Source: Pseudonocardiaceae bacterium (GTDB lineage Bacteria; Actinomycetota; Actinomycetes; Mycobacteriales; Pseudonocardiaceae). Taken from it: DNA of 64,000 nucleotides. The position numbers and the translations under genes are program-made. The stretch covers positions 3,850 to 67,849 of the forward strand of contig JBOHFT010000001.1 of the NCBI GenBank assembly GCA_050699815.1, in the 5' to 3' direction. This document shows positions 8,848 to 53,535 of the stretch, in pieces. How positions within the stretch are numbered: position 1 is the stretch's first letter; every line of letters starts with the position of its first letter. Under the pieces are notes generated by a model. It ran no database searches. It saw only the letters and a program-made list of their open reading frames with translations, and was not told the DNA's origin.

Positions 8848-8875
8848 CGGCGTAGTCCCCGGAGAGGAGACAGTT

Positions 8876-13465: not shown

Positions 13466-13487
13466 CAGTCGCCGCTGTGTGAGGTGG

Positions 13488-17984: not shown

Positions 17985-18256
17985 CGCCGCGTCACCGCCG
18001 TGAACTCGACGCCACCGACGTCCCGGTAAGGCCGAAACGTCCGTGGCGTCGAGTTCACGAGCCGCACCCACCAGGTCGGGTCGGCTCGACCGGCGCTGTG
18101 GTGTCCGGTCGGCCGCCGGGAGCTGTCTCAGCCGACGGCCGTCCGGAGTCTGGGGAATTGCGGAACTGCGCAGCGGGTGTCCGCAAGGTTGCCAGCGCCT
18201 CGCATGTCGGGCAGCTGGGCCCGGCGGGCTGGGCGCTGGTGGGCACCGACCACAGC

Positions 18257-35530: not shown

Positions 35531-36240
35531 GTCAGTTCATCACATGAGATGATCTTATGTGATGAACGGAGGCTTGGGTGCGCGGTAAGTACTGACGGTC
35601 GAGGAACGGGACGATGCTCTCCGCGGGATATGCGCGAATCCGTCGGATCGGACGATCTCCGCCCGGCTGGGACGGAGCCAGTCGGTCATCACCCGAGAGA
35701 TCATCCGAAACGGCGGCCGCGACAGCTACCGGGTGCACGCCGCGCAGGAACGGTACAAAACGCTGAAATCTCGCCGAAAGAGCGGAAACTGGAGAAGTAA
35801 TGAGCGATTGCATGATGCTGTCACGGAAAAACTACGGAACGACTTCTCACCGGAGCGGATCTCGGGCAGACTGAAAGAGGACTATCCCGGGGATGCGTAT
35901 GTCCCACGAGACGATCCATCAAGCGCTGTTCCTGCAGGCGAGAGGGGAGCTGCGGACACAGCTGAAGCTGGCCCTGCGGAGCGGCCGGGCCCAGCGGGTA
36001 CCGTGCGGTCGACCCGTCCGAAGCAGACCAAGGGTCGCCGGCATGGTCAACATCAGCGAGCGTCCGGCCGAGGCGCAGTACCGAGCAGTGCCGATCCGCT
36101 GGGAGGGGGATCTGATCATCGAGAAAAGCGGGGGAAACGCTGGGGTTCAAAACTCCGCCAGAGATGCTGGAGAAGGCGCTAATGGAAGCGTCTCATGCAC
36201 TGACCGCTTGAGACCGCCCCGGCAAAGGCGTACTCCTTAC
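35531..36240 (+). mobile_element. IS30-family insertion sequence remnant (frameshifted, internally deleted transposase)
   Basis: IS30-like pieces: ISARLGRSQSVITREIIRNGG..YRVHAAQERY; SPERISGRLKEDYPGD; VSHETIHQALFLQARGELRTQLKLALRSGRAQR; VNISERPAEAQYRAVPIRWEGDLII. It then jumps to the C-terminal tail, FKTPPEMLEKALMEASHALTA* (stop 36209-11). The DDE core is missing. An imperfect 33-bp palindrome lies at 35535-35567. The element ends are not defined. Confidence 0.65.
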
Positions 36241-36377
36241 CCAACCCGGGACCATCGGCAGCTGTCGGCGCTCGGCTGCCAGTGCGTCTCGGGCCCGGGT
36301 AGCTTCTTTCTCATTGACGAGCAGAAGCGAAAAGTGAAACTGTCCGGCCATGGGCCATGGTTAAAACAGGAGCAGCA

Positions 36378-39209
36378 ATGATGAAATTAATTGCGCGAGA
36401 GCAAGATTTTAGTACGCTGCAGAAGATGTACGTTGACAGCCTCGACGGTAGAGGCAGCGTGGCGGTGGTGAGCGGTGCTGTCGGATCTGGAAAAACTGAA
36501 TTACTACGTGCCATTGAAGAATGGGCTACGGAATCCGGCTCGCTAGTGCTCGCCGCCAACTGCTCACCGGTGGAGCGAGCACTCCCACTTAGCTTGGTCA
36601 CTCAGCTTTTCCACAGCGTTGAACTTGATCCGGAGCATGCCGAGAAGGTATCTTTATTTCTCAACGACAGAGCGGGTGCTCACGTTTTGACCGAGCCTGA
36701 CCGGGAAGTCATTAATCGCATTGATACGGGCTTGACGAAAGCTCTTTCAACGCTTCTGCTTGAACTTGCCAAAAATAGTCCGCTCGTAATTGTGATTGAT
36801 GATCTGCATCATGCTGACGGTCTTTCATTGCAGCTCCTGATATATTTCGTCAACCGGCTCAAAACCGCCCGGGTCCTGGTGGTGGTCACCGTATTGGCAA
36901 GTTGCAGGCCAGCTTACCCAATGCTCAGCACGGAACTTTTACGTCCACCATATACCCGGTGTTTCCGTCTTGCTCCACTGTCCCACGATGAGGTAGGTCG
37001 AATACTCTCCCAGGGAATCGATGATGATGCAGCCCAGCTCGCTGCTACTTGCCATGCTATCAGCGGAGGGAACCTGCGCCTGATATGTGCGTTAATGGAC
37101 GACTTTCGTTCATTGGTTGAGACGATTCCAGCGCGGCGCGCCCAGCATGTCTTCCTAGATGTCTTCCTAGGCGACGCATTTAGCGAGGCTGTGCGCACCA
37201 GCCTGCAGCGGTTCGACACGCAGGTTCTGCGGATTGCGCAGGCAGTCGCGGTGCTCGGCGACCTTGTCTCGCCCACTCTGCTCGGCAAGATCCTTGACAT
37301 GGCGGCTGAATCGACTACGCAGGCTATCCAGGAACTAGACATTGCCGGCCTGCTCGACTCAGGACAATTTCGGCATCAAGCGGTCCGATCAATCATACTC
37401 GCGGATATGGTCTCCGAAGAGCGTGCTGATCTCCATCTTAGAATCGCCGAGCTGCTGCATGACGGCGGTGCGCCCGCGACTACTGTCGCCGGGCATCTCA
37501 TCGCGGCGCGGCGAACTCAGGGCCAATGGGCTCTGGAAGTGTTGCTGAAGGCGGCGGAGCAGGTGGCCGATGACGGTCAGATTGGCATGGCGTTCGAATG
37601 TCTCAACTTAGCGTATCAAGATTGCTCTGACGAACGAGAGTGGGTGCCTATTGCGACCGCGCTTGTGAAGGTCGCATGGCGGCTCAATCCCTTCACTGCG
37701 TTGCGCCATTTACCGCAGCTGACCGAGGCAATCCGCGAGGGTCACCTGGACGGCCGGGGAGCCACGATGATAATTAGGTACCTACTCTGGCACGGCAAAC
37801 TCCATCAAGCGGAACAGGCGGTGAACAGCCTGTACGCTGCAGCCAGAACGGCCGGTGCCAAGGAGGCAGCCACTGAGCTCAACGAATTCAGCCTGTGGCT
37901 CTCCTGCTCATATCCTGAATTTTCCCAACGTATCTCGGCTGTATCGGGCGGTGAGACGAAACGCAGCATTTCCTTATCACCGGAGACAATTTATCCGAGC
38001 CTGCAGGGCACCACGTTGCTTGCTGACCTGCTTACTGGCGGTTCGCGAGAAAATGCCGTCCTCAACGCCGAGCAGTTTTTGCGGAGTTGTCGACCGCATG
38101 AAGCTGTGGATGAGCCGCTGACCTCCGCACTCGCCGTTTTGGTATATGCAGGAGAACTGGATTCAGCCAGCACCTGGTGCGTGTCCATCCTCAATAAAGC
38201 TGCGAGCCGCCGCGACGTGACCGGGCAAGCTTTGATTTCCAGCCTTCAAGCGGAAATCGCCGTCAGATCTGGCGACCCGCCCTCGGCGGAACAGTTTTCC
38301 CAGCGGGCGCTTAAGTATATTTCTACTCAAAGCTGGGGACTTGGGATCGGTGCTCCATTAGCCAGTATATTGTTAGCCGCAACGGTGATGGGAAAATACC
38401 AGGAGGCGGCTGAGTATCTCAATCAACCGGTACCAAAGGAAATGTTCCAGAGCCGATTCGGTCTCTACTACCAGCATGCTCGCGGGCATTACTACTTGGC
38501 GACGAACAACGGGCGTGCTGCTCTTGCCGACTTCCGGGTTTGTGGTGAGCTGATGCAGCGATGGGGTATCGACCAGCCGTCGTTGGTGCCGTGGCGGACT
38601 GACATGGCCCAAGCGCTACTGCACTTGGGTGAGAAGGACCGGGCGAGGAAGCTCGTATTAGAGCAACTAGCACGAATTGGAGCGGAACGTTCTCGGGCAT
38701 ACGGTATATCACTGCGAGTACTGGCGGCGACGACCGATCTCCAACATCAGCTCCAGCTGCTCAAGGAATCTATTGATGTTTTGGGAGAATGTGGCGACAG
38801 GCTCGAACTCGCCCGCTCGCTGGCTGACCTCAGCAGTGTGTATCACATACTTGGGGAATCCGCTAAGGCGCGGATGACGATTCGCCGAGCCAGGCACGTT
38901 GCCGGTGACCGCGAGATTGAGCACATGCAAGCTAGATATACGAAAAAACGCACAAGCAAGAATTTTGCAAGATTCCTCGGGGCCCAACAGGGGACCGTCG
39001 GGCAGGTGACGGAGTTGACAGTCTCAGAGCGAAGGGTGGCCGTGCTCGTTGCACAGGGATTCACCAACCGTGAGGTGGCGCAGAAACTGTACATCTCGGT
39101 TAGTACGGTCGAGCAACACTTGAGTAGGACCTACCGTAAACTCAAAATAAACCGCCGCGCAGAATTACCTGCCAGACTCGGACCGAACGATATGCACGAT
39201 ATGTTTTGA
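36378..39209 (+). CDS. LAL-family regulator (large ATP-binding LuxR)
   Basis: ORF 36357..39209. ATG at 36378 follows AGGAG. N-terminal Walker A: VAVVSGAVGSGKTELLRAI. C-terminal LuxR HTH: LTVSERRVAVLVAQGFTNREVAQKLYISVSTVEQHLSRTYRKL. GC is much lower than in the flanks. Confidence 0.9.
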   Translation: MMKLIAREQDFSTLQKMYVDSLDGRGSVAVVSGAVGSGKTELLRAIEEWATESGSLVLAANCSPVERALPLSLVTQLFHSVELDPEHAEKVSLFLNDRAGAHVLTEPDREVINRIDTGLTKALSTLLLELAKNSPLVIVIDDLHHADGLSLQLLIYFVNRLKTARVLVVVTVLASCRPAYPMLSTELLRPPYTRCFRLAPLSHDEVGRILSQGIDDDAAQLAATCHAISGGNLRLICALMDDFRSLVETIPARRAQHVFLDVFLGDAFSEAVRTSLQRFDTQVLRIAQAVAVLGDLVSPTLLGKILDMAAESTTQAIQELDIAGLLDSGQFRHQAVRSIILADMVSEERADLHLRIAELLHDGGAPATTVAGHLIAARRTQGQWALEVLLKAAEQVADDGQIGMAFECLNLAYQDCSDEREWVPIATALVKVAWRLNPFTALRHLPQLTEAIREGHLDGRGATMIIRYLLWHGKLHQAEQAVNSLYAAARTAGAKEAATELNEFSLWLSCSYPEFSQRISAVSGGETKRSISLSPETIYPSLQGTTLLADLLTGGSRENAVLNAEQFLRSCRPHEAVDEPLTSALAVLVYAGELDSASTWCVSILNKAASRRDVTGQALISSLQAEIAVRSGDPPSAEQFSQRALKYISTQSWGLGIGAPLASILLAATVMGKYQEAAEYLNQPVPKEMFQSRFGLYYQHARGHYYLATNNGRAALADFRVCGELMQRWGIDQPSLVPWRTDMAQALLHLGEKDRARKLVLEQLARIGAERSRAYGISLRVLAATTDLQHQLQLLKESIDVLGECGDRLELARSLADLSSVYHILGESAKARMTIRRARHVAGDREIEHMQARYTKKRTSKNFARFLGAQQGTVGQVTELTVSERRVAVLVAQGFTNREVAQKLYISVSTVEQHLSRTYRKLKINRRAELPARLGPNDMHDMF

Positions 39210-39273
39210 GTATGGTCCGGGTGATATTCCTCATGGCACAGTATCATAATGGCACAGTATTCATAATGACACG

Positions 39274-39885
39274 TTAGAACTCCGGAGTGGCCGCCCTGTC
39301 CAGTTCGGTAATTACCCATTCTGCGACGCTGCAGTCCATCCGCTCGGCGGCATGCTGCCAGCGGTCAAGACGTTCCACCGGAACTTCGATCTTCAGAATT
39401 GTGGTCTTCGTTGCGCTTTCTTGGAGTGGTTTCGGCCGATTGGCAGAACGGGTAGCGCGAATCCGTCGACGCAGCTCATTGCGCGACCAATTAAATCGCT
39501 CAGCTCGGGTCAACCACTCGTCCTGCTCTGCCTCGGTAAGTGCCGCAACCTCGGCGTGGTGCCCGAAGCTCAGGCTGTCCCGCCGGCGGGACAGCCTGAA
39601 CTTTTTCGCGACCCATGCGTAGTTCCGCAGGGTTTGATAGTCCAGCGATGTGCCCGTGATAGCTTGCTCGTAACGATCTCCGAAATAGTTCTCACCGTAC
39701 GATAGCCAGTCTCCCACCCACCACGCACATGAGTTTGCGACTGCAAATACTTGTGATCCGATCTGGCGCCACACTTCGAAGGACAGCTCGCTGGGCAGGA
39801 CGAGCCCACTCCTCTGGGCGCGTACTCTCCAGTTAGCGCCGAGGTTCAGAATTGAACTCCCCGGTTCCCATCCCGCGGTTCCCAT
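39274..39885 (-). CDS. LmbU-family pathway regulator
   Basis: SFEVWRQIGSQVFAVANSCAWWVGDWLSYGENYFGDRYEQAITGTSLDYQTLRNYAWVAKKFRLSRRRDSLSFGHHAEVAALTEAEQDEWL matches the LmbU/NovE-type signature as I remember it. The ORF is open up to 40188, so the start is uncertain (39885 or 39969). Confidence 0.7.
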   Translation of the reverse strand: MGTAGWEPGSSILNLGANWRVRAQRSGLVLPSELSFEVWRQIGSQVFAVANSCAWWVGDWLSYGENYFGDRYEQAITGTSLDYQTLRNYAWVAKKFRLSRRRDSLSFGHHAEVAALTEAEQDEWLTRAERFNWSRNELRRRIRATRSANRPKPLQESATKTTILKIEVPVERLDRWQHAAERMDCSVAEWVITELDRAATPEF

Positions 39886-40676
39886 CCCGCTTGCACCGCC
39901 CGTGATTTCGCGCCTCGCAGCAGATCGTACGTCCTCGCCGCGCTCTAACTTCTCCCAGTGCTCACCGACTCTGTCACGGCACACACCGCCAAGGCCGCAA
40001 CAACCGTGTCCACCTACGAGGGCAGCAGGGCTCGATGGCGAGCAGAAGTGGCACAGCTGACTACCAGGCGGATCACCAAATCTGACAAATACTGAACTCG
40101 CGCGTTCAGGCGGATTGCCCAAAAATTGGACCCGTGTAAATGCATCACCACCCCAGCCCTTCGCTGCGTCGTGTTCAACCACGTCCACTCAAACATCGTT
40201 AAACGACGTCTCGGGCTCCCGGGCGGGTCACACGGCAACATCGCAAAAATACTGACCGGTTGGCCAGTACGGTACGACAAGGAAGCTAGCGCAAGACCGC
40301 AATCAACCCGTAATGTGCGCATGCTCTCACGTGGTGCCATGTCCCGGTGACGTGACAGTCCAGGTCATCGACAGCGAATGCGGAGGAGACATGGCACAGC
40401 CGGTCGTTGGTGCCCGACAGGATCTGCACTCCCCGCCCCGCTCCGGCGGACGGGCGCCGATGTCGGTGCGGGCGCTGATCGCCGATCGATCGCCGCGATC
40501 ACCGTGTCGTGGTCGGCCGAGGCTGGCGGTGCGAGGCGTATCACTCACCAGATCATCCCCAGTCCAAGGATCTGGGTGCCGCACCGTGCTGCGCGCACTT
40601 CGAGCTGGTCTGGACACCACTGGGGCGCGGTCGGTGGATCGCGCGGTGGCGCTAGACGCGGTCGCCGGCGGTGTCC

Positions 40677-41180
40677 CTACTGGCGGCGCTGGAGGATGAC
40701 CAGCGGGATTTGGCGGGTGATCTTGGCTTGAAGTCCGGCAAGGAAGGGATAGTTCTCCACGGCGTCCGCCCACAGCCGGTCGCGTTCCTGCCCCACCGCC
40801 ACATGGGCGGTGGCCGCCCAAGACTCGGCACCGACCTCCACAGTGACCTTGGGGTGTGCCACCAGGTTGTGCTACCAGTCAGGGTGGGTGGGTGCGCCCT
40901 GATCGGAAGCGAACACGATCAAGCGGTCACCGTCGGTGTGGTATATTCAGGGGGTTGACGCGAGGTTTGCCGCTTTTGGCTCCGATGCTGGTCAGCAACA
41001 GCAGCGGACCGCCAAACTGGCCGTCGACCTGTCCCGCGTTGGCGCGAAACTCGGCGATGACCGTCGGATTGAGATGACCGGTGCCTGCTCGACCAGGACG
41101 GGCTCGACGCCGCGGACGGGGAGGCCGGACGCGAGTGCGAGTCCGGCCAAGCCAGCCCCGATGATCAAAATACGGTTCAT
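40677..41180 (-). pseudogene. Fused debris: FAD-monooxygenase N-terminal 34 codons plus a DUF385/F420-dependent nitroreductase-family gene with a frameshift and an in-frame TAG
   Basis: MNRILIIGAGLAGLALASGLPVRGVEPVLVEQAP (GxGxxG), then NPTVIAEFRANAGQVDGQFGGPLLLLTSIGAKSGKPRVNPL / DGDRLIVFASDQGAPTHPDW*HNLVAHPKVTVEVG...ERDRLWADAVENYPFLAGLQAKITRQIPLVIL. The TAG is at 40872-74. Confidence 0.5.
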
Positions 41181-41282
41181 CGCCCATCACGTAGGAAAGT
41201 GAATACTGCGGTGGCCCGGCCGATGCCAGATCCATGAATTGATCGCGGCTTTGACGCCGCAGGTCGGGTGTTGCTGCAGATT

Positions 41283-42701
41283 TTACTTCGTACCGACGGC
41301 CATCGAGTCCGCACCCCCCAGGTGCTCGACGTAGCAGTCACGAAATCCGGCATCGGACAACCAACCAACGCAGTCCGCTCCCGTGCAATTGGAGCCCCCT
41401 AAGGTTAACAGCAGCATATGCAGGCTCATGAGCAGGCCGAAAGCGTCATGCTTGCGGTCGTCGTCAATAAGGCATTCGTAGACAACGACGGTCCCGCCGT
41501 CAGGCAGCGATTCGTAGGCCTTTCCCAGCAGCATCCGCCTGGTCTCCAAGTCCCAGTCGTGCAGCACATTCCCGAACACGATAACGTCGGCACTGGGTAG
41601 CGGGTCGGTAAAGAAACTGCCGCTCACGAACTTCATCCGGTCAGTGAGTCCGAACTGCTCCACTGTTTCGGCGAAGATCGGGCCGACTGGCGGTAGATCG
41701 AAGCCAATCCCGCTGAGGTGGGGATGGCGGCGCAGCACTCGGGACAACAACGATCCCTGTGCGCAGCCGACATCGGTGACGGTCGTGCGCTTCTCCCAGG
41801 GGAAACGCTCCGCAAGCGCGAGAACGGTGCCCAGAGTACCAGCGGCCATCGCCCGCAGGAACTTTCGCAGGTGTTCCGGCTGCGTGTACAGAACGTCGAA
41901 TAACTCAGTTTTGCTGACCGCCGCATCGTGTTGCGGCAACCCGGTCCGCAAGGCAGATTCCAGATTTCCCCACAATAAGTAATACTGACTATTAACACGC
42001 TTGAGCAAATCGCCCAAGTATTGTTCAGGATCCGATTCGTTTAATACTGCAGCGCTTATCGGCGTGTTACGGTACAAGCCGTTCTCTCGATCGAGTAATT
42101 TTAACGCAACCAGTGCATCGAAGAAATCTCGTGCGCTGCGATCGTGTAGACCAAGTTTTACCCGAAGGGTCTCCGCATCCAGTGGTTGCGCCGCCAGTTC
42201 GGTGAACACGCCGAGTTCCACCGCAACGAGGAGCGCCTTCGCATGCCAGAAGCCGTGCCCAAGCTGAAAAATATGCTCCTTCTGCGAGGGCATCCCTGCC
42301 TCGTTGGTTCCCAGCAGTGTTCGAATGCCAGCCGTGTCGTGGTAGTCTTCGAAATTGGTGGCTTTCCCATCGGCTAGTCGCCAGGAGTGGACAAACGGCA
42401 CCGTGCAGGCTTGTCCACTGTGCGCGACCCGCATGTGGTGCGTTCCGGTCACCATCACACGGTCACCTGATTCGACAAACTCTTGAGGTGCTGGCCGAAG
42501 TTCGCTGAAGATTCTGCGAGCTCGTGTCATAAAATCCCGAACCTGCTTGTGCCCTTTCTTGATTCCGCCGAGTCCATAGTCGTTCATCCCCTGGGGATGG
42601 GTCCACTCGATGGTGGGAGAGAACAGTTCCATTGCGGCGTCGATGTCGCCGCGGGCAAACGCGGCGTATGATTCGTGGATGATCTCAGTGTTAGTAGGCA
42701 C
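41283..42701 (-). CDS. Bifunctional NTF2/SnoaL-like domain fused to class I SAM-dependent O-methyltransferase (COMT type with dimerisation domain)
   Basis: 472 aa. Residues 1-130, [30 protein letters not shown]...SGDRVMVTGTHHMRV...[19 protein letters not shown], are SnoaL-like. The rest, [23 protein letters not shown]...VTDVGCAQGSLLSRVL...FGNVLHDWD, is an O-MT. Confidence 0.85.
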   Translation of the reverse strand: MPTNTEIIHESYAAFARGDIDAAMELFSPTIEWTHPQGMNDYGLGGIKKGHKQVRDFMTRARRIFSELRPAPQEFVESGDRVMVTGTHHMRVAHSGQACTVPFVHSWRLADGKATNFEDYHDTAGIRTLLGTNEAGMPSQKEHIFQLGHGFWHAKALLVAVELGVFTELAAQPLDAETLRVKLGLHDRSARDFFDALVALKLLDRENGLYRNTPISAAVLNESDPEQYLGDLLKRVNSQYYLLWGNLESALRTGLPQHDAAVSKTELFDVLYTQPEHLRKFLRAMAAGTLGTVLALAERFPWEKRTTVTDVGCAQGSLLSRVLRRHPHLSGIGFDLPPVGPIFAETVEQFGLTDRMKFVSGSFFTDPLPSADVIVFGNVLHDWDLETRRMLLGKAYESLPDGGTVVVYECLIDDDRKHDAFGLLMSLHMLLLTLGGSNCTGADCVGWLSDAGFRDCYVEHLGGADSMAVGTK

Positions 42702-42789
42702 GTTCTTCCTTTCCGTGGAAGGGCTGATCCGAAGGGAGCCAACGGTGACTGTTCAATGACGTTACCGCTGGACGTCCGCGTTTGGCCCG

Positions 42790-43722
42790 CTACGGACGGG
42801 TCGAGGCAGTGCTCACTAAGTCGGGTAGATGAACTTCTAGCGTCCTGCGAAGGCCGTCCCGCCAGCCCACCGTGCAGTTCCCTATAAGTGATTTTCGTAA
42901 GGTATTGTCAAACGCGTGTGTCTCTCGTGTCACGTCATTTTGCGCGTACGTGGCGACCGTGCCGCTGAGCTGTGCTAGGTAATTCATCGCATCCGTGATT
43001 CCAACGACATCGTCACCACCCCAATTCACGACACGTGCTGGCACCGTCGCCACATTCCACAGAAGTGGGACCTGCCGGGCGATGTCGTCAGTATGGATCG
43101 GGTTGCACAAATTCTGTCCAACCCGGGGAACCTCAATCGGCTGGCCGGCGAGAATTCTCCGCAAGAACAGTATCGGCACGCCCCCGTGACCATATGGCCC
43201 GTATGCGATGTTGAGCCGGGCGATCGTCGTAGGCAAAGACAGTGCCGTGGCCAGGGCACGCACCGCTCCCTCACTTGCAATCTTGCCGATCGGATAGGTG
43301 GGAAACCACAACGCCTGCCCGCTAAGCGCGTCCGTTTCGGTATAGCGGTGATCGAGGCCCTGATGTGCGTAGACCGCACCGGTCGAGACGAACAGGAACG
43401 CTTCAGCGCGCCGGCAGTGCATCATCAGCCTGCCGATCGCTCCACAATTGATGTCGACGGTCTCATCGAAGTCACTACCGTTTCCCCTGTGGCACGCCGA
43501 GTGCATGATATGCGTGAAGTCGTCCGGCACACCGTCGAGGCCCTCGGTTCCCATGTCCCAGCGCCAGGTCCGTATCCCGTGCGAGAGCAGTCCCTGTCGT
43601 GCCTGGGCGTCGCCGAACCGGCCCAGACACCAGACCTCGTTGTCTTTCGCAAGAGCTTCGGCCACCGGACGGGCAACCTGACCGGTGGCGCCAGTGATGA
43701 GAATTTTTTTTCCGGTAAGCAC
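42790..43722 (-). CDS. NAD(P)-dependent epimerase/dehydratase-type SDR (putative quinone/ketone reductase)
   Basis: 310 aa: [26 protein letters not shown] (Rossmann)...FVSTGAVYA...YPIGKIASE (YxxxK). Confidence 0.85.
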
Positions 43723-43791
43723 GGTTTCCTCTCCATTGCTAGTCGTCGGCGGTGGCCCGCCACTAGCCGGTCCGGTTGTCTGCGTCTGTGA

Positions 43792-46617
43792 TCAGTCGCA
43801 TCCCAACGCCCGGTCTAGTTCTTTCCGAAGGGTAGCTTGAAAACTTGCCACGTGTTGCGGGCCCATCAGCGTGTAGTGCTCTCCTGCGACGTCGATATAA
43901 CGGTTCGGACCGCGGGTGAAGTTGTCCCACTCCCTGAGCTGGTCCTTCAGCCAGGATTCTTTCGTACCATGGAGTGGAATGGCGTAGAATACACTGACCG
44001 ATTTCACGGTGCCCGAGGGTTCATAAGTGCGGCCGAGCTCCACCATCGACTGCGCGAGGTCCACCCATGCGGCGAATTTGGCAACATTGAGATCCAGCTC
44101 GGCAAGGCGTGCTTGTGAAGCCATACTGACGAGGTGCTCACACGTTTCATCCTTGGACAGGTTCTCGTTTCGCAGCAGTTTCGGCAGTTTCACCATCTGG
44201 TCTTTGGTGACCAGTGACAAGAAGAACGCCAGGTTCACCGCGCCCTCGACGAAGTCAAGTTCATGCATGCGGCTCTGTATATGCGGCGGAAGATTGAAGA
44301 TTCCCACGAACTCGACGCGCTCGCCGGCCGCCTCGAGAGCCTTGGCGATCTCAAACGCGACGACACCGCCGTAGGAATAACCTGCGACCGCGTACGGCCC
44401 ATTTGGCTGCTTGCTGCGAATGGCCTGCACATAGCACTGTACCATCTCGTCGAAGGTGCGGAAGTAATCTTCGTTGGCGCCAAAACCACGGGCCCGCAAT
44501 GCATAGAAAGGCCGTTCGTTGAGGAAGTATTTGGCAAGGTTAACAAAGACCAGGACTTCACCGACACCGGGATGGACGCAAAACAGTGGTGTCTTGGTGC
44601 CGGTCTGTTGAAGTGGTACAAGAGGGTCGTAGCAGGGGGATTCTTGACCGAGCGCGGCGAGCACGCCAGCCAGCTGTCGTACGGTGGGTGCCCGCAGTAG
44701 CGCGACGACGGGCAGGTCAACGATACTGAAACGGGATTCGACCTCCTTCTTCAGTCGCAGTATTTCCAGAGATGTCCCCCCGAGGTCGAAGAAGCTGGCA
44801 GTGGCGCTCACCGCCGCCGGCTCCAGGTCAAACATCCCGGCGTAAATCTCGGCCAGCGACACCTCGGCGGAGCCATTGGGCGCACTGTACCCGCCGATCT
44901 GACGCAGCGTCAGATCGGCCACTGATTGAACACAATCAGCGAAATCGCCTGCCTCGAGTCTTCTGCGCAGCACGGATCTCTGGATCTTCCCGAGGCTGGT
45001 CTTAGGTATTTCGGACTTGGGCAGCGGCAAGATGAGGGCTGGCCGGAATCCCCAATGCATCACCACGGTACTACGGATCGCAACAAGTAATCGATGCAAG
45101 TCGGCTTCACCTTCGAAACTGGGGCTGGGAACGACAGTGATGACCAGCTCCTCGGTGTCGCTGCCGACGGGTCGGGTGGGAAAGGCCGCGACATAGGACT
45201 TCTCCACGCCGTCAAGCTGCTCAAGGGCGGTCTCGATGTCGTGGCTGAAGTAGTTGACTCCATTGACGATGATACTGTCCTTGCTTCGCCCCGTGAGGGT
45301 GAGCCGCCCATTGTCAAGGAAACCTCGATCACCGGTACGGAACCAACCGTCAGCCGTGAACGCGTCCGCGGTTGCCCGGTAGTTGTTGAAGTAACCGCTC
45401 GTGACCATAGGTCCACGCAGCTGGACCTCACCAGTCCGATGGTCCGTCAGTGGCACGCCGTTGCCACCGACGATGCGGATCTCCAAGCCGTCTACCGGCA
45501 GCCCTACCGAGGCGAATTCTCCTTCTGATTCGGTGTCAGGAAACTCCCGCGAAAAGATGCTTCCAGCGCAAGTCTCAGTCATTCCGAACGCCGGAACAAT
45601 CACGTTTTGGCGCAGCCCGAAATCCTTGAGAAGTTCAAGGTAGCGCCGTGCTGTTGCGCACACAACGGCTTCGCCGCCTGAGATGATGTACCGGACTGAC
45701 CCGAGGTCCACCGAGAAACCATCCGGCTGTTCATCGAGCGCCGCGTTGATCTGACCGAGCAGGAAGTTCGGCGTGAATGTGAGACCGACCTGGTAAGCCT
45801 CGATCAGCCGAAGAAAACGGAGGGGCTCGGTGAGGATGACCTCAGGTTTGATCTGGACCTGCGTTGCTCCGATCGCCAGCGGCAACAGATGTCCCTCGAT
45901 TGCGGCGATGTGGTCGAAAGATATCCAGTTCATCGTTTTCTCGCCGAAAGCAAGTTCTAGCCGATCGGTCTTGCCGGCCAAGGCGGAGAGGAGGTTGCCG
46001 TGGCTAAGCATCACAGCCTTGGAGTTTCCGGTAGAGCCAGACGTGAGCATGAGTAGGGCCAGATCGCTCAGGTAGGCATCGTGAATGCGTGACTCAGGTT
46101 CGCTGTCCGATAGCTCGTCAAAAATCGTTACCTTCGCATGCTCGAAGGTAGGCATCTCGGCATTGATGTCGGTCGTGGTCAGCCACAGGGGGCTGTCCAG
46201 TACGTCGTTGACGTGTCTGAGTTGGGCGGCCCAGCGAGTTGTGTCGACCCTTATGGGTAACAGCGGGCAGGGTACGTAGCCGCCGAGCACGCAAGCCCAA
46301 AAAGCAGGTATGAACTCGGTGGATCGTTCCAGCAGGAGCACGATATTCGTCCCGGTCGGCAGCTTTCGTGCGCGCAGTCCGCCCAACACTCGGCGGGCCA
46401 AGTCCAAGACCGACCCGTAGTCCTGGAAAACGGAATCGCCGATCACGTCGCCGTCCAGGTAGTGAACACCGGCGTTCGGCGCAATGTCGGCGGCATGGAA
46501 GAGTAGATCGGCTATGCTCTTAAACTCGCCTATCCGTTTCGACCAGGTGATGTCCGTGTCAGCGGCGAGTTCGCCGAATTTCTGCACGTGACTCTGCTGC
46601 GCCGTAGAAGTATCCAT
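43792..46617 (-). CDS. NRPS-like A-T-TE synthetase (aryl-alpha-keto-acid dimerising, terphenylquinone/furanone-synthetase type)
   Basis: In the frame of ORF 43792..47079. ATG at 46617 follows GGAGA. A-domain motifs: LMLTSGSTGNSKAV, WFRTGDRG, GRSKDSIIVNGVNYFSHDIE, PKTSLGKIQR. Carrier: FFDLGGTSLEILRL. Thioesterase: AGYSYGGVVAFEIA. No C domain. Confidence 0.9.
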   Translation of the reverse strand: MDTSTAQQSHVQKFGELAADTDITWSKRIGEFKSIADLLFHAADIAPNAGVHYLDGDVIGDSVFQDYGSVLDLARRVLGGLRARKLPTGTNIVLLLERSTEFIPAFWACVLGGYVPCPLLPIRVDTTRWAAQLRHVNDVLDSPLWLTTTDINAEMPTFEHAKVTIFDELSDSEPESRIHDAYLSDLALLMLTSGSTGNSKAVMLSHGNLLSALAGKTDRLELAFGEKTMNWISFDHIAAIEGHLLPLAIGATQVQIKPEVILTEPLRFLRLIEAYQVGLTFTPNFLLGQINAALDEQPDGFSVDLGSVRYIISGGEAVVCATARRYLELLKDFGLRQNVIVPAFGMTETCAGSIFSREFPDTESEGEFASVGLPVDGLEIRIVGGNGVPLTDHRTGEVQLRGPMVTSGYFNNYRATADAFTADGWFRTGDRGFLDNGRLTLTGRSKDSIIVNGVNYFSHDIETALEQLDGVEKSYVAAFPTRPVGSDTEELVITVVPSPSFEGEADLHRLLVAIRSTVVMHWGFRPALILPLPKSEIPKTSLGKIQRSVLRRRLEAGDFADCVQSVADLTLRQIGGYSAPNGSAEVSLAEIYAGMFDLEPAAVSATASFFDLGGTSLEILRLKKEVESRFSIVDLPVVALLRAPTVRQLAGVLAALGQESPCYDPLVPLQQTGTKTPLFCVHPGVGEVLVFVNLAKYFLNERPFYALRARGFGANEDYFRTFDEMVQCYVQAIRSKQPNGPYAVAGYSYGGVVAFEIAKALEAAGERVEFVGIFNLPPHIQSRMHELDFVEGAVNLAFFLSLVTKDQMVKLPKLLRNENLSKDETCEHLVSMASQARLAELDLNVAKFAAWVDLAQSMVELGRTYEPSGTVKSVSVFYAIPLHGTKESWLKDQLREWDNFTRGPNRYIDVAGEHYTLMGPQHVASFQATLRKELDRALGCD

Positions 46618-46759
46618 TGATTCTCCTAGAGGAGTTTGTGAACTGCCGGCCGGGACGTGTCCATTCATTGGTCTGGCTGAGCTGGGGTGTTTATGACCCG
46701 TCCATCGCGGACACGATCCTCTGCCCGCGCCACGGCCCATGTGCTGGGGCGTGATTCGG

Positions 46760-48016
46760 CTAAACGGCAGGAGATAAGTTAACAAAAGCGTCGGGGACGG
46801 AATCCATGACCGGGCACCTGATCTGGACGCCGGAGATGAGGATAATGAAGTCATCACGAGCCTTGAAGTGCTCATTCGGGTCGACCAGTTTGCGAGCCTT
46901 TTCGAAGTACTCCACAACTTTCCTGCTCGGGTCGTAGAAGAAACGCACAAACGAGACCACGTTGTTGAGGAAAGCGCGGTATCCGTCCTCGTACGATTGA
47001 CGAATCGAGGCATCCAGGTCCGGCTTGTCGAGAATTTGGTTGATAGCGCTCGCTGCTGACGAGGCACTTGCCATGGCAAGCACGACGCCAGTGGAGAACA
47101 ACGGGTCGATGAACGCCGCCGCGTCGCCGACCTGTACGAAGCCGGGACCGCTCATCCGTTCGCAGGTATAGGACCAGTCCTTGGCCGTGCGAACCTGGGA
47201 CACCTCAACGGCACCGGTCAACAGGCGCTTGATCTCCTGTGACTCGTCGATGCGCTGGTAGAGCATTGCTGCGGGCTTCACGCCGGATGCGGCGTACTCC
47301 TTGATTGGCGCGACGTACCCGACGCTGCATGTATTGTCGCTGAATGGGATCAGCCAGAACCAGCCTGGTGGCCTGTTTTCGATCACAACGTTGCCGGCCT
47401 TCTGCCCGGGATAGCGGATACCGCCTTGGAAGTATGTCCAGGCGGCCAGATTCTTCAGGTCTGAGTGCCAGCTGACTGTGTCGAAGCGCCGACCCATGAG
47501 CTTGGCTTGACCGGAGGCATCAACGATGAACGGAGCGTGAACGTCGATCACGTCATCGGAGTGAACCGGGCTGTAGCGTACACCTGTGCAGCGGTCGCCC
47601 TCGAACAGGGCCTCGCGGACGTTCGCTTCCTCGATCACAGTTGTGCCCAGCCGTCGCGTATGAGTCAGCAGCAAGTTGTCGAACTCGGCCCGCTTGACCT
47701 CATAGGCGTAGTGGTACGGAGCCCCATCAACCTCATCGAAACGAACGTCCCACGGTTCTGGGTTTGCCCCCCAGAGCAGCGATACTCCATACTTCCTGAT
47801 CGCACCAAGTTCCTCCAAGACCTGAGTGGCGCCGAGTTGCTCGATGACCGGCATGATGCCCGGAAGGAGGGATTCGCCAATGTGGTATCGGGGAAATTTC
47901 TCCTTCTCTAGCAAGAGTACGCGTCGTCCCCATTTGGACAAGAGCCCCGACACTGTGCTGCCGGCGGGGCCTCCGCCAACGACGATGACATCATATTGAT
48001 CACGTTGATCATGCAC
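46760..48016 (-). CDS. Flavin-dependent halogenase
   Basis: In the frame of ORF 46760..48142. GTG at 48016 lies 7 nt after AGGAGG. Motifs: YDVIVVGGGPAGS (GxGxxG), PPGWFWLIPF (WxWxIP) and VGDAAAFIDPLFSTGV. Confidence 0.85.
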   Translation of the reverse strand: MHDQRDQYDVIVVGGGPAGSTVSGLLSKWGRRVLLLEKEKFPRYHIGESLLPGIMPVIEQLGATQVLEELGAIRKYGVSLLWGANPEPWDVRFDEVDGAPYHYAYEVKRAEFDNLLLTHTRRLGTTVIEEANVREALFEGDRCTGVRYSPVHSDDVIDVHAPFIVDASGQAKLMGRRFDTVSWHSDLKNLAAWTYFQGGIRYPGQKAGNVVIENRPPGWFWLIPFSDNTCSVGYVAPIKEYAASGVKPAAMLYQRIDESQEIKRLLTGAVEVSQVRTAKDWSYTCERMSGPGFVQVGDAAAFIDPLFSTGVVLAMASASSAASAINQILDKPDLDASIRQSYEDGYRAFLNNVVSFVRFFYDPSRKVVEYFEKARKLVDPNEHFKARDDFIILISGVQIRCPVMDSVPDAFVNLSPAV

Positions 48017-48667
48017 TGAGTGGCCTCCTATTTTTTCTTTTTCCCCTGCGCACCACCCCCGACATTCGGTCGGTGGTTGTCGGTTGTCGTTGCGCCCGCT
48101 GGTGGTAGTGGTAAGAGCACCGGTGGCCCGGTTGGTTGCCACTCTTAATCTGACGCCATCCCCGGGTGCCTGTCAACGACCCGCACGACATCTTCGGGTC
48201 GATTCCAGCGCAGTGCCAGGGGATAGTGTGCACGCTTCCGGGGTTCGGTCAGATCCCCCAGCAGCTTGCGACCTTCCAAATAAGGGTTGCTGTCCCCTCA
48301 GGTAGGGGGCGCTAGAGGTTGCCAGCACTGTACGCTGCTGGATGACCGGGGACAGGTTCGTGGGAGCGAGCGGGAGAAAGCGCACTAGATGCGCAGGTGG
48401 GGGACAGGAAGACGTGCGTCGGAGCTGGTGAAGTGCCGAAACGGTGGCATGCCGACAGGCCACGTCGTACCCACATCTGGCCGCCGAGACCGACAGGTCG
48501 ATATTCCGGCTAGCGTTTACGCGACGTCGCCAGCCACGATGCACGAGCGCTACGAACGCGCGGGACCGCTCGGCCGATCCGGCCGCGGCGTGCCGTCGGG
48601 GCTGAAATCGTTAAGCGCCAGGCTGATGCCGGCCGCGCCGCCCGCCCTTCAGTGGCCCGGTCCGACT

Positions 48668-48749: not shown

Positions 48750-49328
48750 GTGTCCAGCCCTGCGGCCGATTCGGCCGCCAGTACCACGCTCGATGACCTG
48801 TCGGGCCACTACGACCTCGACGTCGTGCACAGCCGCCTCGGATTCGTCGCACGCCACGCCATGGTTACCAAGGTGCGAGGATCCTTCGCTGAGTTCGCCG
48901 GGTCCTTCGATCTCGACGCGTCGAACTGGCCCGCATCCACCGCGCAGGTCACCATCCAGGTATCCAGCGTCGACACCGGCAACGAGCAGCGCAACGGGCA
49001 TCTGCGCACCAGCGACTTCTTCGACGCCCCGAACTACCCGCAGATCATCTTCACCAGCACCCGGGTCGAGCAGACCGCCGAGGACACCTTCGCGGTCACC
49101 GGCGACCTGACGATCAAAGGCACCACCAGGCCCGTCACCATCAACTTCGGCTACACCGGCCAGGCGCTCGACCCCTACGGCAACACCCGAGCCGGCTTCG
49201 AGGGCAGCTCCACCATCGACCGCACCGACTTCGGCATCACCTTCAACTCCACCTTGGACACCGGCGGTGTGCTGGTGTCGAACAAGATCACCCTCGAGCT
49301 CGACATCTCCGCGATCAAGGCTAAGTGA
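48750..49328 (+). CDS. yceI: YceI-family (polyisoprenoid-binding) protein
   Basis: In the frame of ORF 48696..49328. GTG at 48750 follows GAAGGAG. Sequence: YDLDVVHSRLGFVARHAMVTKVRGSFAEF...NEQRNGHLRTSDFFDAPNYPQIIFTST...GDLTIKGTTRPV. Confidence 0.85.
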   Translation: MSSPAADSAASTTLDDLSGHYDLDVVHSRLGFVARHAMVTKVRGSFAEFAGSFDLDASNWPASTAQVTIQVSSVDTGNEQRNGHLRTSDFFDAPNYPQIIFTSTRVEQTAEDTFAVTGDLTIKGTTRPVTINFGYTGQALDPYGNTRAGFEGSSTIDRTDFGITFNSTLDTGGVLVSNKITLELDISAIKAK

Positions 49329-49488: not shown

Positions 49489-49977
49489 ATGGCCGAACCG
49501 CTGTGGCTGAACACCCGGGAACAACAAGCGTGGCGGGCATTCCTCGACGTACGCCGGGAGCTTCTGGCCGAGCTCAACCGCCAGCTCACCCGCGACGCGG
49601 GCCTCTCCGGAGCCGACTACGAGCTGCTCGCCCCGCTGTCCGAGGCATCCGACGGCCGAATGCGCCCAGTCGACCTCGCTCGCCAGGTCGACTGGGACCG
49701 CAGCCGCCTCTCCCACCAGATCACCCGGATGCAGGAACGGGGACTCGTCCGCCGCGAAGAATGCTGCACAGACGCACGCGGCGCGTTCGTCGTCCTCACC
49801 GACCACGGCCGAAAGGTCATCGAATCAGCCGCACCCGGCCACGTCCGGAGCGTGCGACACTTCTTCCTCGACCTCCTGCAACCCGGCGAGATCGACACCC
49901 TCATCTCCATCTTCGACCGGGTCCTTAACCGACTGCGCCACGACGCCAGCCGCTGCCCTCACAAGGATCCTGCATAG
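49489..49977 (+). CDS. MarR-family transcriptional regulator
   Basis: In the frame of ORF 49267..49977. ATG at 49489 follows AGGAGG. Sequence: [27 protein letters not shown]...[50 protein letters not shown]. Confidence 0.85.
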
Positions 49978-50185
49978 CATCCTCAACGAGCAACTTCAAC
50001 GCAACCAGCGCATCGAAGAAATCCCGCGTGCTGCGATCATGTAGACCAAGTTTTACCCGAAGGGTCTCCGCAGCCAATGGTTGCACCGCCAGTTCGGTGA
50101 ACACGCCGAGTTCCACCGCAACGAGGAGCACCTTCGCACTCCAGAAACCGAGCCCAAGCTGAAGAATCTGCTCCCGCGAGGTCAT
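49925..50185 (-). pseudogene. O-methyltransferase fragment (dimerisation domain only), paralogous to 41283..42701
   Basis: [66 protein letters not shown], compared with copy [62 protein letters not shown]. Homology stops at ~49995, where the marR 3' end begins. Confidence 0.7.
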
Positions 50186-50595
50186 CCCTGCCTCGTTGGC
50201 TCCCGCAGCAGTGCTCGAACAGCAGCCGTGTCGTGGTAGTCCTCGAAGTGAGTGGCTTTCCCATCGGCCAGCCGCCAGGAGTGGACAAACCGTACCTTGC
50301 AGACCTGTCCACTGTGTGCGACCCGCATGTGGTGCACTCCGATCACCATCACACGGTCACCTGATTCCACAAACTCTTCGTGTGTTGACCGAAACTCACT
50401 GAAAACTCCACGAGCCCGTTTCATAAAATCACGAACCTGGTCCAGCCCTTTCTCGGTTCCGCCAAGTCCATAGTCGTTCATCCCATCGGGATGGGTCCAC
50501 TCGATATCCGGAGAGAACAGTTCCAACGCTGCGTCGATGTCACCGCGGGCGAACGCGGCATATGACGCCTGGATGATCGCACTGTAGGTGCGCAT
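50182..50595 (-). CDS. Stand-alone NTF2/SnoaL-like protein (paralogue of the N-domain of 41283..42701)
   Basis: ATG at 50595 (GAAAGGA RBS): [46 protein letters not shown]...[27 protein letters not shown]. About 78% identical by eye to copy A. Its stop forms an ATGA overlap with the O-MT fragment. Confidence 0.72.
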
Positions 50596-50944
50596 GATGT
50601 TCCTTTCTGTGGAAGGACCGATCCGAAGGCAGGCCAACGGTGACTGTCCAACGACGTCACCGAACAGGAACGCTTCAACGCGCCGGCAGTGGCGGGAGGG
50701 ATGCGGTCGTTCACCGCGATCGTCGCCGATGCTCCCGCCGAGCTGATGGCCGAGTTGTTTGTACGGCCGGTGTGGCTGACCGGTAAGGTGCCCGTCGACG
50801 TGCACGATCTGGCGGGTGGTCACTACCGGTCGGGACGTGTCCATTCACTGGCCTGGTTGAGTTGGGCGTTTGTGGCCCATCCACCGCGGGCATGATCTCC
50901 CGCTGCCTCCACCAAGACCCATGCGCTGGGGCGTGATTCATCGA

Positions 50945-51312
50945 CTAAGCGACAGGAGATGGCATAACAGGAACGTCGGTCGGGGATGGGGTCCATGATC
51001 GGGCGCATCGCGTAGATGAGGGTAACGAAGTCCTCACGAGCTTTCAAGTGCTCCATCGGGTCCGCGAAGCGCCGAGCCATGATCTTGGCCTGACCGGAGG
51101 CATCAACGTTCCTCCAAGACCTGGGCGGTGCCGAGCTCATCAATGGCCGTCAGAACACCCGGAACGAGGGACTCGTCAATGTCGTATCGGGGAAATTTCT
51201 CCTTCTCTTTCGCTGGCAAGAGTGCGCGTCGTCCCCATTTGGACAGGAGTCCCGACACTGTGCTGCCGGCGGGGCCTCCGCCGCTGACGATGGCATTATG
51301 CTGATCACTCAC
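50945..51312 (-). pseudogene. Flavin-dependent halogenase remnant (multiple internal deletions)
   Basis: MSDQHNAIVSGGGPAGSTVSGLLSKWGRRALL..EKEKFPRYDIDESLVPGVLTAIDELGTAQVLEE, then DASGQAKIMARRF, then DPMEHLKAREDFVTLI. These correspond to the N-terminal, middle and C-terminal pieces of 46760..48016. Confidence 0.7.
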
Positions 51313-51809
51313 TGATGGCCTCCTACTTTATTCTTTACCACTTGCCGCCCCGACATTCGGTCGGTGGTCATCGTTACGCCCGCTGGTAAGAGCACCGGTG
51401 GCCCGGTTGGCGGCTGCTCTTAATCTGACGTCGCCCCCGGGTGCCTGTCAACGACCCGCAAGACATCTCCGGGTCGACGCGAGCTCAGTACCAGGGGACA
51501 GCGTGCACGCTTCCTGGATTCGGTTGGATCGGCAGCAGCCTTGCCGCCCCCCAGTAGGGGTTGCTGTCCCGAAAGCAGGGGCCGTTAGGGGTTATCGGCA
51601 CTGTGCGTTGTGGATGACCAGGGGCGGGTTGCGTGGGCTGCGGACTTCTGCGAGGGTGGGGCGGATGACGTGGTCGCGGAGGGCCAGCAGGGCGGCGATA
51701 GTGCGGGTGGCAGGACTTCCCGATGGCTGGCCTCGCCACTATCGTGTCACCGGGGTGACAATCCGGCAAGTATTCGGTGCAGTCGCGCGTAATGATTACG
51801 GGGGTCACG

Positions 51810-52871
51810 ATGACAACAGTGGACGAGATACCAGTCCCGACGGGCTCACCAACGGAGCCGCCACCTGCGGTCGCGATATTTCAGCTGATCATTGGATCCT
51901 CTGTCTCTCAGGCGGTCAGCGTGTTCGCCAGGCTCGGAGTTGCGGACGCGCTGGCGGCCGGCCCGCGGGACGTTGACGAGATCGCGGAACTGGTAGGCGC
52001 GCACGGCCCGGCGTTGCACCGGCTGCTGCGAGTGGTCAGTGATGTCGGAGTCGTCACGGAGCTGGAGAATCGGCGGTTCGCCCTGACCCCGCTCGGTGAG
52101 GTGCTGCGCAGTGACGTCCCGGGTTCGTTGCGGAGCTGGTCGACGGTGGTCGGGATGCCGTTCTACCGTTATCCGTGGGCCGATCTGTACGAGACTATCC
52201 GGACCGGGGAATCAGCATTTGATCGGGTCCACGGCACCAGCCTCTTCGGCTACTTGGCGGAGCACCCCGAGGATGCGGCGATCTTTGATGCGGCCATGAC
52301 CTCGATCTCCACGATGGATATTGCCAGCATCATCAAAGCGTACGATTTTACCCGTTTCGGCACGATAGTGGATGTTGGTGGTGGGCGTGGCGGCCTGCTC
52401 GCCGCGATCCTGGCCGCTAACCCGCACCTTCAGGGCGTGCTGTTCGACGTGCCGGCAGTCGTGGCCGGTGCTGGGGAAGAAATTTCCGGCGCCGAGGTCG
52501 CCGACCGCTGCAAGGTGGTGAGCGGGAACTTCTTCGACTCGGTGCCGGAGGGGGGCGATGCCTACCTGCTGAGCAACATCATCCACAACTGGGACGACAA
52601 TCGCGCAGCGGAAATCCTGAGCACGTGCCGGGCTGCGATGACTGAGACCGCCTGCGTGCTGCTCGCTGAGGTCGTGCTGCCGGAGGGCGCAGCATCGTCA
52701 AGGGTCAAGTTAATGCATTTGGGGATGCTGGTCCTGACCGCTGGTGGTCGCCAGCGTACTGAGGCGGAGTTCCGCACATTGCTTGGCCGGGCAGGGTTTC
52801 GGCTGACCCGCATCGTGCCGAGTACCGGCCCGTTTAGTCTTGTCGAGGCGGTCCCTGACTCGCTGAGTTGA
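51810..52871 (+). CDS. SAM-dependent O-methyltransferase (COMT/hydroxyneurosporene-OMT type)
   Basis: In the frame of ORF 51777..52871: [28 protein letters not shown]...[20 protein letters not shown]...[11 protein letters not shown]. Confidence 0.85.
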
Positions 52872-53457: not shown

Positions 53458-53471
53458 CTCACCTACTCGGC

Positions 53472-53535
53472 GCAGTCTGGATGCAGAACGCGGCAAACAG
53501 GCCGGCTACGGGTGCAGTCTGGATGCAGAACGCGG
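53472..53535. repeat. 22-bp perfect direct repeat GCAGTCTGGATGCAGAACGCGG x2 (42-bp period)
   Basis: Copies at 53472-53493 and 53514-53535, in the convergent gap between the DUF427 and SdpI-like genes. Confidence 0.9.

Follow-up and report, generated by a model that had tools for sequence, protein, structure and literature searches.

We analysed a 64,000-nucleotide window of a Pseudonocardiaceae genome (assembly GCA_050699815.1, contig JBOHFT010000001.1) that contains a low-GC island carrying what is very probably a gene cluster for a bacterial p-terphenyl. Along the window, the GC fraction falls from ~0.70 to 0.57-0.62 over ~35-53.5 kb, which delimits an island at ~35.4-53.5 kb with 60% GC between flanks of 66-70%. 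Within this island, four genes on the minus strand lie head to tail with gaps of 69-142 bp and encode, in operon order, a flavin-dependent halogenase, an adenylation-thiolation-thioesterase (A-T-TE) enzyme resembling a nonribosomal peptide synthetase (NRPS), a short-chain dehydrogenase/reductase (SDR), and a fusion of an NTF2/SnoaL-like domain with a methyltransferase. This core (41283-48016) has 58.5% GC, compared with 70.4% in the left flank and 65.8% in the right flank. An earlier note on this DNA had described a compact low-GC cluster, and we recovered all the features it listed where it had placed them, including a second O-methyltransferase gene and a DUF427 gene at 51.8-53.5 kb, both of which have Pfam matches.

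The synthetase gene (43792-46617, minus strand) encodes 941 aa, in which Pfam finds AMP-binding (residues 65-410), PP-binding (588-652) and Thioesterase (from residue 677) domains and no condensation domain, in agreement with the A-T-TE enzyme lacking a C domain that had been described before. The adenylation motifs A3, A5, A7, A8 and A10, the carrier-domain serine (GGTSL), the thioesterase motif GYSYGG and the C-terminal His are all kept. Its top PDB matches are the McyG A-PCP (adenylation-peptidyl carrier protein) didomain and a keto-acid-selecting A domain, and it shares 59-65% identity with enzymes from Burkholderia, Streptomyces and Nocardiopsis whose genes adjoin TerB and TerC genes. Domains, motifs, PDB matches and tree position point to a synthetase that would dimerise aryl-alpha-keto acids into a terphenylquinone. 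Scanning species-representative genomes with the synthetase gave 54 loci (the window's genome is not among them), which we then searched locally with the window proteins. Locus L067 is 100% identical to the window and is not independent evidence. The gene order synthetase-TerB-TerC is kept in ~45 of the ~50 actinomycete loci found in this way. In an unbootstrapped neighbour-joining tree, the window synthetase groups with other halogenase-linked enzymes beside a Nocardiopsis clade, and both lie inside a family linked to the synthetase-TerB-TerC triad that also holds Streptomyces and Burkholderia enzymes. By this indirect placement, the enzyme appears to nest in a triad-linked bacterial family and not among the reductase-type or other non-dimerising NRPS-like clades, a placement that the earlier note had raised as a way in which its prediction could fail.

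The gene that follows (42790-43722, minus strand) encodes a 310-aa extended SDR of the Pfam Epimerase family, a TerB/EchB-type NAD(P)H-dependent reductase. It matches the crystallised terfestatin reductase TerB (PDB 6nd7/6d2v) at E = 4e-121 with ~62% identity over 302 residues, and the alignment keeps both the Rossmann motif GATGQVA and YPIGK (YxxxK). The last gene of the operon (41283-42701, minus strand, 472 aa) encodes a TerC-like NTF2 dehydratase domain (42297-42701) joined through a linker to a class I O-methyltransferase domain (41283-42281); Pfam assigns SnoaL_2 to residues 9-115, an O-methyltransferase dimerisation domain to 141-220 and Methyltransf_2 to 244-454. The NTF2 domain matches TerC (PDB 6d34/6wf4) at E = 5e-32 with ~45% identity and keeps all 25 of the positions that show at least 95% conservation across 53 aligned TerC-family members. 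Both open reading frames (ORFs) and their Pfam domains agree with the earlier description of an SDR and then a fusion gene following the synthetase, and the homologies to TerB and TerC bear out the likeness it had drawn to the synthetase-reductase-dehydratase triad of the echoside and terfestatin pathways. Over its full length, the fusion protein matches PDB 22ow, a 461-aa ‘methyltransferase’ that likewise combines these two domains (E = 2e-127). The fused methyltransferase keeps the S-adenosylmethionine-binding motif DVGCAQG and the His of the LHDW motif (VLHDWD), which is the general base in O-methyltransferases; at this position, the methyltransferase RedM (PDB 8tji) has Ser and 22ow has Leu.

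These assignments bear on whether the scaffold is a p-terphenyl at all. The operon could instead make a furanone or butenolide of the ralfuranone or aspulvinone type, or a bis-indolylquinone from indole-3-pyruvate, on which the SDR and NTF2 proteins would then act. A single A-T-TE architecture is reported to yield several cores, the thioesterase domain deciding between them (PMC9047271); no reliable specificity code was obtained from the window's A domain, and the fused methyltransferase domain resembles the bisindole enzyme RedM. On the other hand, TerB and TerC homologues at such identity are known only from quinone reduction-dehydration, the triad is carried by the whole surrounding clade, and the nearest producer strain makes p-terphenyls. 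We therefore regard a different scaffold as very improbable.

The fusion of TerC with a methyltransferase is not confined to the window and recurs in at least nine other loci. The sub-group that carries it comprises the window, three loci from Pseudonocardiales metagenome-assembled genomes (MAGs), a soil metagenome contig (L004), Nocardiopsis gilva, two Streptomyces strains, Actinophytocola and Sphaerisporangium, and separate look-ups found TerC-methyltransferase fusions in Pendulispora and Marinactinospora as well. The TerC partners come from two different methyltransferase families: RedM-like in the window, N. gilva and others, and OMT2-like in Sphaerisporangium and Pendulispora, OMT2 being the second O-methyltransferase (OMT) of the window's island. 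The OMT2-like fused methyltransferases are 42-43% identical to the window OMT2 and 26-29% identical to the window's fused methyltransferase; their genes lie at 13656-15068 of the Sphaerisporangium album locus (L011) and at 11684-13141 of the Pendulispora albinea locus (L062). The 2,3,5-trihydroxyterphenyl formed by reduction and dehydration reportedly re-oxidises or dimerises in air and is stabilised by O-methylation (PMC12105029), which provides a rationale for the TerC-methyltransferase fusion. Repeated joining of TerC with methyltransferases would be expected if coupling the two activities were advantageous. That an OMT2-like methyltransferase is fused to TerC in other lineages also argues, by extension, that OMT2 belongs to the pathway.

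The gene for OMT2 (51777-52871, plus strand; called start 51921, 316 aa) has a Pfam Methyltransf_2 match at 2.3e-49, and its product is 45% identical to the OMT encoded after the fusion gene in N. gilva.

The operon is headed by a gene for a short, phenol-type flavin-dependent halogenase of the CndH/CmlS-like kind (46760-48016, minus strand, GTG start, 418 aa; Pfam Trp_halogenase/FAD_binding_3). The motifs by which it had been recognised ahead of the synthetase (GxGxxG, WxWxIP and FIDPLFSTGV) were located as GGGPAG at residues 14-19, GWFWLIPF at 218-225 and FIDPLFSTGV at 302-311. Its PDB matches include 8zop (52% identity), CndH (3e1t, E = 7e-77) and CmlS; a search for literature on the 8ZOP entry found none. 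Lys75 (AIRKYG) aligns with the lysine of CndH ‘FPIKRGG’ (K76, a number counted from the alignment), of 8zop ‘FQRKYGG’ and of CmlS, so that the catalytic lysine, whose absence on alignment the earlier note had named as damaging to its prediction, is in place. Among the related loci, a window-type halogenase is limited to those with 81-83% identical synthetases (L001, L006, L007 and L004).

Elsewhere, halogenases of this family occur in other surroundings. One halogenase with 78% identity belongs to a type II polyketide synthase (PKS) cluster, where its neighbours include OMTs sharing 64-68% identity with the window OMT2; halogenases that are 65-71% identical occur in other surroundings unrelated to this one, and an 8zop-like halogenase (72% identical to 8zop) also sits in a type II PKS cluster next to OMTs. 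We rejected the idea that this halogenase family serves terphenyl clusters exclusively, given its 65-78% identical relatives in type II PKS and other contexts. Because these relatives tailor type II PKS clusters, a free polyphenol substrate and a late halogenation of the terphenyl are favoured; as judged from its relatives, the enzyme probably belongs to a family that tailors free aromatic polyphenols. The type II PKS cluster with the 78% identical halogenase and the two 64-68% OMT2 relatives occupies positions 1-14881 of a metagenome contig from ENA (L066). The same contig encodes a BBE-methyltransferase fusion whose methyltransferase part is 52% identical to the window's fused methyltransferase. 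Its gene content suggests that polyketide and terphenyl clusters have tailoring genes in common.

Halogenation could instead come early, with tyrosine, 4-hydroxyphenylpyruvate or a carrier-bound aryl-pyruvate being chlorinated before dimerisation and an adapted A domain yielding a symmetrically dihalogenated terphenylquinone. The halogenase gene comes first in the operon, and the enzyme's closest well-studied structural relative is CndH, which reportedly acts on a carrier-bound tyrosyl group. The A domain also offers a possible sign of adaptation. The A4 helix of the window synthetase carries the signature FDHIAA-IEGH (45889-45918, residues 234-243) and is one residue shorter than the FDHVAALLEC/AH of the Streptomyces and Burkholderia enzymes; ‘FDHIA(A/G)IEGH’ is present in the A4 helix of all halogenase-linked synthetases, including the distant Pendulispora enzyme, whereas the Nocardiopsis enzymes (with 4,4''-oxygenated products) carry IEMH at this site. 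Although the signature might influence which substrate is chosen, it is not strictly tied to the halogenase: xEGH also occurs in synthetases that have no halogenase nearby, such as Marinactinospora L061, and several further proteins carry it. We accordingly downgraded IEGH as a marker of halogenase-linked synthetases, and its presence in Marinactinospora without a halogenase leads us to give early halogenation low weight. The 65-78% halogenase relatives in type II PKS or unrelated clusters without a tyrosine-derived substrate argue in the same direction, and we consider halogenation before dimerisation distinctly unlikely.

The substrate itself was not indicated by the rule used for fungal A domains, in which Ile or Val at position 5 denotes phenylpyruvate and Asn denotes 4-hydroxyphenylpyruvate. 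We discarded this rule here as non-discriminating, since Ile or Val occupies the position in every bacterial family member, N. gilva included.

At Pendulispora albinea L062 (CP089984.1, 3560-13141), a gene for a 500-aa halogenase is followed by genes for an acyl-CoA dehydrogenase-like protein and a GST, and these in turn by genes for the synthetase, TerB and the TerC-methyltransferase fusion. The 500-aa enzyme is 36% identical to the window halogenase, and the locus apparently represents a second, independent pairing of a halogenase with a terphenyl-type cassette.

With the four proteins assigned, a pathway can be proposed in which halogenation is a late step. The A-T-TE synthetase would adenylate an aryl-pyruvate (phenylpyruvate or 4-hydroxyphenylpyruvate) and load it onto its carrier domain, and a Claisen-Dieckmann condensation of two such units by the thioesterase domain would give a terphenylquinone, either polyporic acid or atromentin. 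The TerB-like SDR would then reduce the quinone and the TerC-like NTF2 domain dehydrate it, giving a 2',3',5'-trihydroxy-p-terphenyl; the methyltransferase fused to TerC would O-methylate this air-sensitive intermediate at once and so stabilise it. The halogenase is predicted to chlorinate (or brominate) an activated aromatic carbon of the free phenolic terphenyl, for example at the single free central-ring C-H created by TerB and TerC or ortho to an outer-ring phenol, and OMT2 could add further O-methyl groups. The domain identities, the TerB and TerC homologies, the synteny and the purifying selection described below are observed; from these we infer which substrate is used, what each step does chemically, when halogenation takes place and what the product is. 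The product is probably a chlorinated, O-methylated terphenyl, close to the halogenated, O-methylated p-terphenyl-like metabolite predicted in the earlier note, a prediction to which the TerB and TerC homology, the synthetase grouping and the halogenase lysine lend support.

Over 6.7 kb, the order of the four core genes is kept, with 84-85% DNA identity, in three other loci from two Pseudonocardiales genomes and a soil metagenome contig. The four-gene cassette has 57-59% GC in all of its hosts and lies below its flanks in three of them; a collinear cassette with the same low GC across hosts points to a transferable unit. The loci L001, L006 and L007 (Pseudonocardiales MAGs) and L004 (soil metagenome) share the identical set of four genes, halogenase included, and differ from the window in what surrounds it. 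Beyond what the window holds, L001 has an intact SDR gene, a FAD monooxygenase gene, three F420H2 quinone reductase genes and a methyltransferase gene. L004 has, downstream of the cassette, genes for a cupin, two OMTs and an ABBA prenyltransferase (PTase_Orf2, 17467-18426), which would imply that its organism makes prenylated, halogenated terphenyls. None of the four loci has the LAL gene, the LmbU gene, the ghost copy or the DUF427 gene, all of which are present in the window and are described below. Compared with L001 and L004, the four core genes of the window give dN/dS values of 0.19-0.35, and these values, together with the intact catalytic motifs, indicate that the core genes have been under purifying selection.

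The surroundings of the core tell of decay. Immediately downstream of the fusion gene, 40669-41189 on the minus strand holds two decayed tailoring genes, which we identified by blastn to L001 and L006 and by three-frame translation. Positions 40669-41072 are an F420H2-dependent quinone reductase pseudogene with one frameshift and one in-frame stop (a 54-aa fragment of it still gives a weak F420H2_quin_red match), and joined to it at 41073-41189 are the first 117 bp of a FAD monooxygenase gene. By blastn, these remnants are 84-91% identical to genes that are still intact in L001 and L006, where they lie downstream of the cassette, so that the window cluster appears pruned compared with its relatives.

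Upstream, at 49987-51637 on the minus strand, the entire operon is present a second time as a collapsed ‘ghost’ copy, which was found both by self-blastn of the island and by an independent repeat search (families D1-D9 and D11-D14). It preserves the 5' end of the halogenase gene together with the operon's upstream (promoter) region (48017-48364), the segment 47802-48364 matching 51100-51637 at 78% over 573 bp, as well as 44 bp from inside the halogenase gene, the halogenase/synthetase junction (75% over 251 bp) and 31 bp of the SDR gene. A further piece of 679 bp at 85% identity runs from the intergenic region between the SDR and fusion genes through the whole TerC domain into the methyltransferase domain, of which it keeps the first ~200 bp. 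Large internal deletions have removed the rest, and the sole intact survivor is a standalone TerC gene (50182-50592, minus strand, 136 aa), whose stop codon was created by a 2-bp indel in the linker. This paralogue has 77% amino-acid identity to the fused TerC domain with a dN/dS of 0.31, and it keeps 24 of the 25 conserved positions.

Such decay raises the possibility that this genome holds the cassette as a silent or non-functional evolutionary remnant that is eroding after horizontal transfer. A quinone reductase pseudogene and a truncated monooxygenase gene immediately downstream, a collapsed second operon copy, a GC content atypical for the host, and the absence of the SDR, FAD monooxygenase, further F420 reductases and methyltransferase found in L001 and L006 all fit this account. 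It is harder to reconcile with four intact core ORFs, an intact OMT2 and standalone TerC, dN/dS values of 0.19-0.35, the retention of all catalytic motifs and the two regulators alongside. We regard a defunct cassette as unlikely, though given the decay around the core genes the cluster may not be expressed in the source organism.

The two regulator genes lie beside the operon. The first (36378-39209, plus strand, 943 aa called) encodes a member of the large ATP-binding LuxR-type (LAL) family; with AAA_16 at 10-176 and GerE at 887-937 of a 950-aa ORF, the product shows the ~900-1000 aa length, the N-terminal AAA/Walker ATPase and the C-terminal LuxR/GerE helix-turn-helix by which this family is recognised. 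The second (39274-39885, minus strand, 203 aa called, in an ORF open to 40188) encodes an LmbU-family transcriptional regulator that scores 226 bits against LmbU_fam_TF (NF038070), for which the cut-off is 125. No LAL homologue was found within 10 kb of any related locus, and the LmbU gene is absent from all related loci. The earlier note had placed the cluster under these two regulators; their adjacency to it is borne out, and since neither gene occurs in any related locus, the argument for a regulatory role is one of adjacency. On this basis we list LAL and LmbU as candidate pathway activators.

Between the operon and the ghost copy sit two further plus-strand genes, encoding a YceI-like protein (48750-49328; Pfam YceI, 7.7e-48) and a MarR-family regulator (49489-49977; MarR-type NCBIfam matches). 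In ~14 Streptomyces triad loci, YceI is likewise encoded near the synthetase, a few kb on its upstream side, and Actinophytocola has a YceI gene immediately downstream of the synthetase; four of the Streptomyces loci also give a weak MarR match beside YceI. The two genes are a probable accessory, resistance or regulatory pair of the cluster and may form a module for quinone or phenol binding, for resistance or for sensing. Neither their probable membership in the cluster nor the ghost copy and the decayed tailoring genes had been noticed in the earlier note. The last gene of the island, for a DUF427 protein (52915-53457, plus strand, called as 53005-53457; PF04248, 7.9e-25), has no counterpart in any related locus in the local search, and its membership in the cluster is uncertain.

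At the left edge of the island, where GC drops, a 162-aa ORF (35893-36381, plus strand) is a possible transposase remnant. By our reading of the sequence, its product tentatively resembles the middle part of an IS30-type transposase; it has no Pfam match at E<=1e-5. At the right edge, just past the DUF427 stop codon, the 25-nt sequence GG(C/T)GCAGTCTGGATGCAGAACGCGG occurs twice, 42 bp apart (53469-53535), and the island ends before the leucyl-tRNA synthetase gene (leuS) at 54102. We found no tRNA genes in the window, and a repeat search of the window gave no clear direct repeats flanking the island. Outside the island, downstream of leuS, lie genes for a TylF-like methyltransferase (57114-57965) and a 1057-aa UvrD-family helicase (58067-61240).

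Taken together, the evidence makes it highly likely that the locus is a bacterial p-terphenyl cluster of the ter/ech/dat type that a Pseudonocardiaceae genome acquired horizontally on a low-GC cassette. Several points pull the other way. The synthetase tree lacks bootstraps and includes none of EchA, TerA, DatA, BTH_II0204, RalA or fungal AtrA, and the placement of the enzyme is indirect in that its neighbours are defined by synteny. The fused methyltransferase domain is 50% identical to RedM, which is an N-methyltransferase, and we saw no flavin reductase gene in the island. The gene-product link in N. gilva is circumstantial, and it is the best available link of this architecture to a methylated p-terphenyl. 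Finally, the flanking pseudogenes and the ghost copy mark a locus that is partly decaying and that may be silent or give a simpler product than its relatives do.

The novelty of the cluster is smaller than the earlier note had claimed. In the literature we searched, whose coverage is incomplete, we found neither a halogenated bacterial p-terphenyl nor a characterised cluster for one; the fusion of dehydratase and methyltransferase is not the unusual feature it was taken for, as it occurs in at least nine other loci and in a solved structure (22ow). The core pathway is known, and the cassette itself recurs in uncharacterised genomes. A more ambitious version combines three proposals: that the product would be the first bacterial halogenated p-terphenyl, that the TerC-methyltransferase fusion, assembled with two unrelated methyltransferase families, channels the air-sensitive 2',3',5'-trihydroxyterphenyl before it can re-oxidise or dimerise, and that the cassette is mobile between Pseudonocardiales, with its halogenase and OMT drawn from aromatic-polyketide clusters. 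We put this combination forward tentatively, as a possibility that falls short of being probable. If the predicted pathway holds, the cluster would add halogenated members to the p-terphenyls, a family that includes cytotoxic, antibacterial and phosphodiesterase- or hexokinase-inhibiting compounds, and would provide a compact four-gene cassette for them along with a halogenase that acts on the terphenyl scaffold. The recurrent dehydratase-methyltransferase fusion is a natural coupling of consecutive steps around an unstable intermediate and could be useful for pathway engineering, and the ghost operon and pseudogenes offer a snapshot of the duplication and pruning of a transferred gene cluster. 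Overall, the locus represents an incremental extension of a known pathway and does not overturn current understanding.

The closest characterised systems are the ter, ech and dat clusters of Streptomyces; DatA and EchA have been shown to convert phenylpyruvate to polyporic acid in vitro (PMC9379647). The window shares their gene order and logic: an A-T-TE polyporic acid synthetase, an NAD-dependent epimerase-family reductase and an NTF2/LEH-like dehydratase. It differs from them in that its dehydratase is fused to a methyltransferase, a halogenase heads the operon, no glycosyltransferase is present, and the synthetase has FDHIAA-IEGH instead of FDHVAALLECH at A4; in addition, the host belongs to the Pseudonocardiaceae and the GC content of the cassette is foreign to it. 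Nocardiopsis gilva YIM 90087 produces 6'-hydroxy-4,2',3',4''-tetramethoxy-p-terphenyl, and its locus (L005) keeps the window order with a synthetase that is 65% identical, a TerB homologue at 69%, a TerC-methyltransferase fusion at 57-63% and a second OMT at 45%. Its synthetase falls in the sister clade of the neighbour-joining tree. Unlike the window, it has no halogenase and its GC content is native to the host.

For the fusion protein, the nearest structural counterpart is PDB 22ow from Marinactinospora thermotolerans DSM 45154, which has the same NTF2-methyltransferase architecture and is encoded directly after an A-T-TE synthetase. The two proteins are ~45% identical, and 22ow departs from the consensus at 9 of the 25 conserved NTF2 positions and lacks the LHDW His in its methyltransferase. 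A function or publication for 22ow was not found, nor was any literature linking Marinactinospora with terphenyls. The halogenase shares with CndH (3e1t), CmlS (3i3l) and 8zop the same fold, the GxGxxG, WxWxIP and FxxPxxSxG motifs and the catalytic lysine; compared with CndH and CmlS, it is short (418 aa) and lacks their C-terminal extension, and its nearest relatives, at 78%, serve type II PKS clusters as tailoring enzymes. A parallel from outside bacteria is the fungal allantofuranone pathway (AlfA, AlfC, AlfD), which has no halogenase and whose proteins are unrelated in sequence context. There, polyporic acid is reductively dehydrated and then O-methylated, which stabilises the trihydroxyterphenyl. 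AlfC merges the reductase with the dehydratase, whereas the window merges the dehydratase with the methyltransferase, so that in both systems consecutive steps of the route have been joined in one protein.

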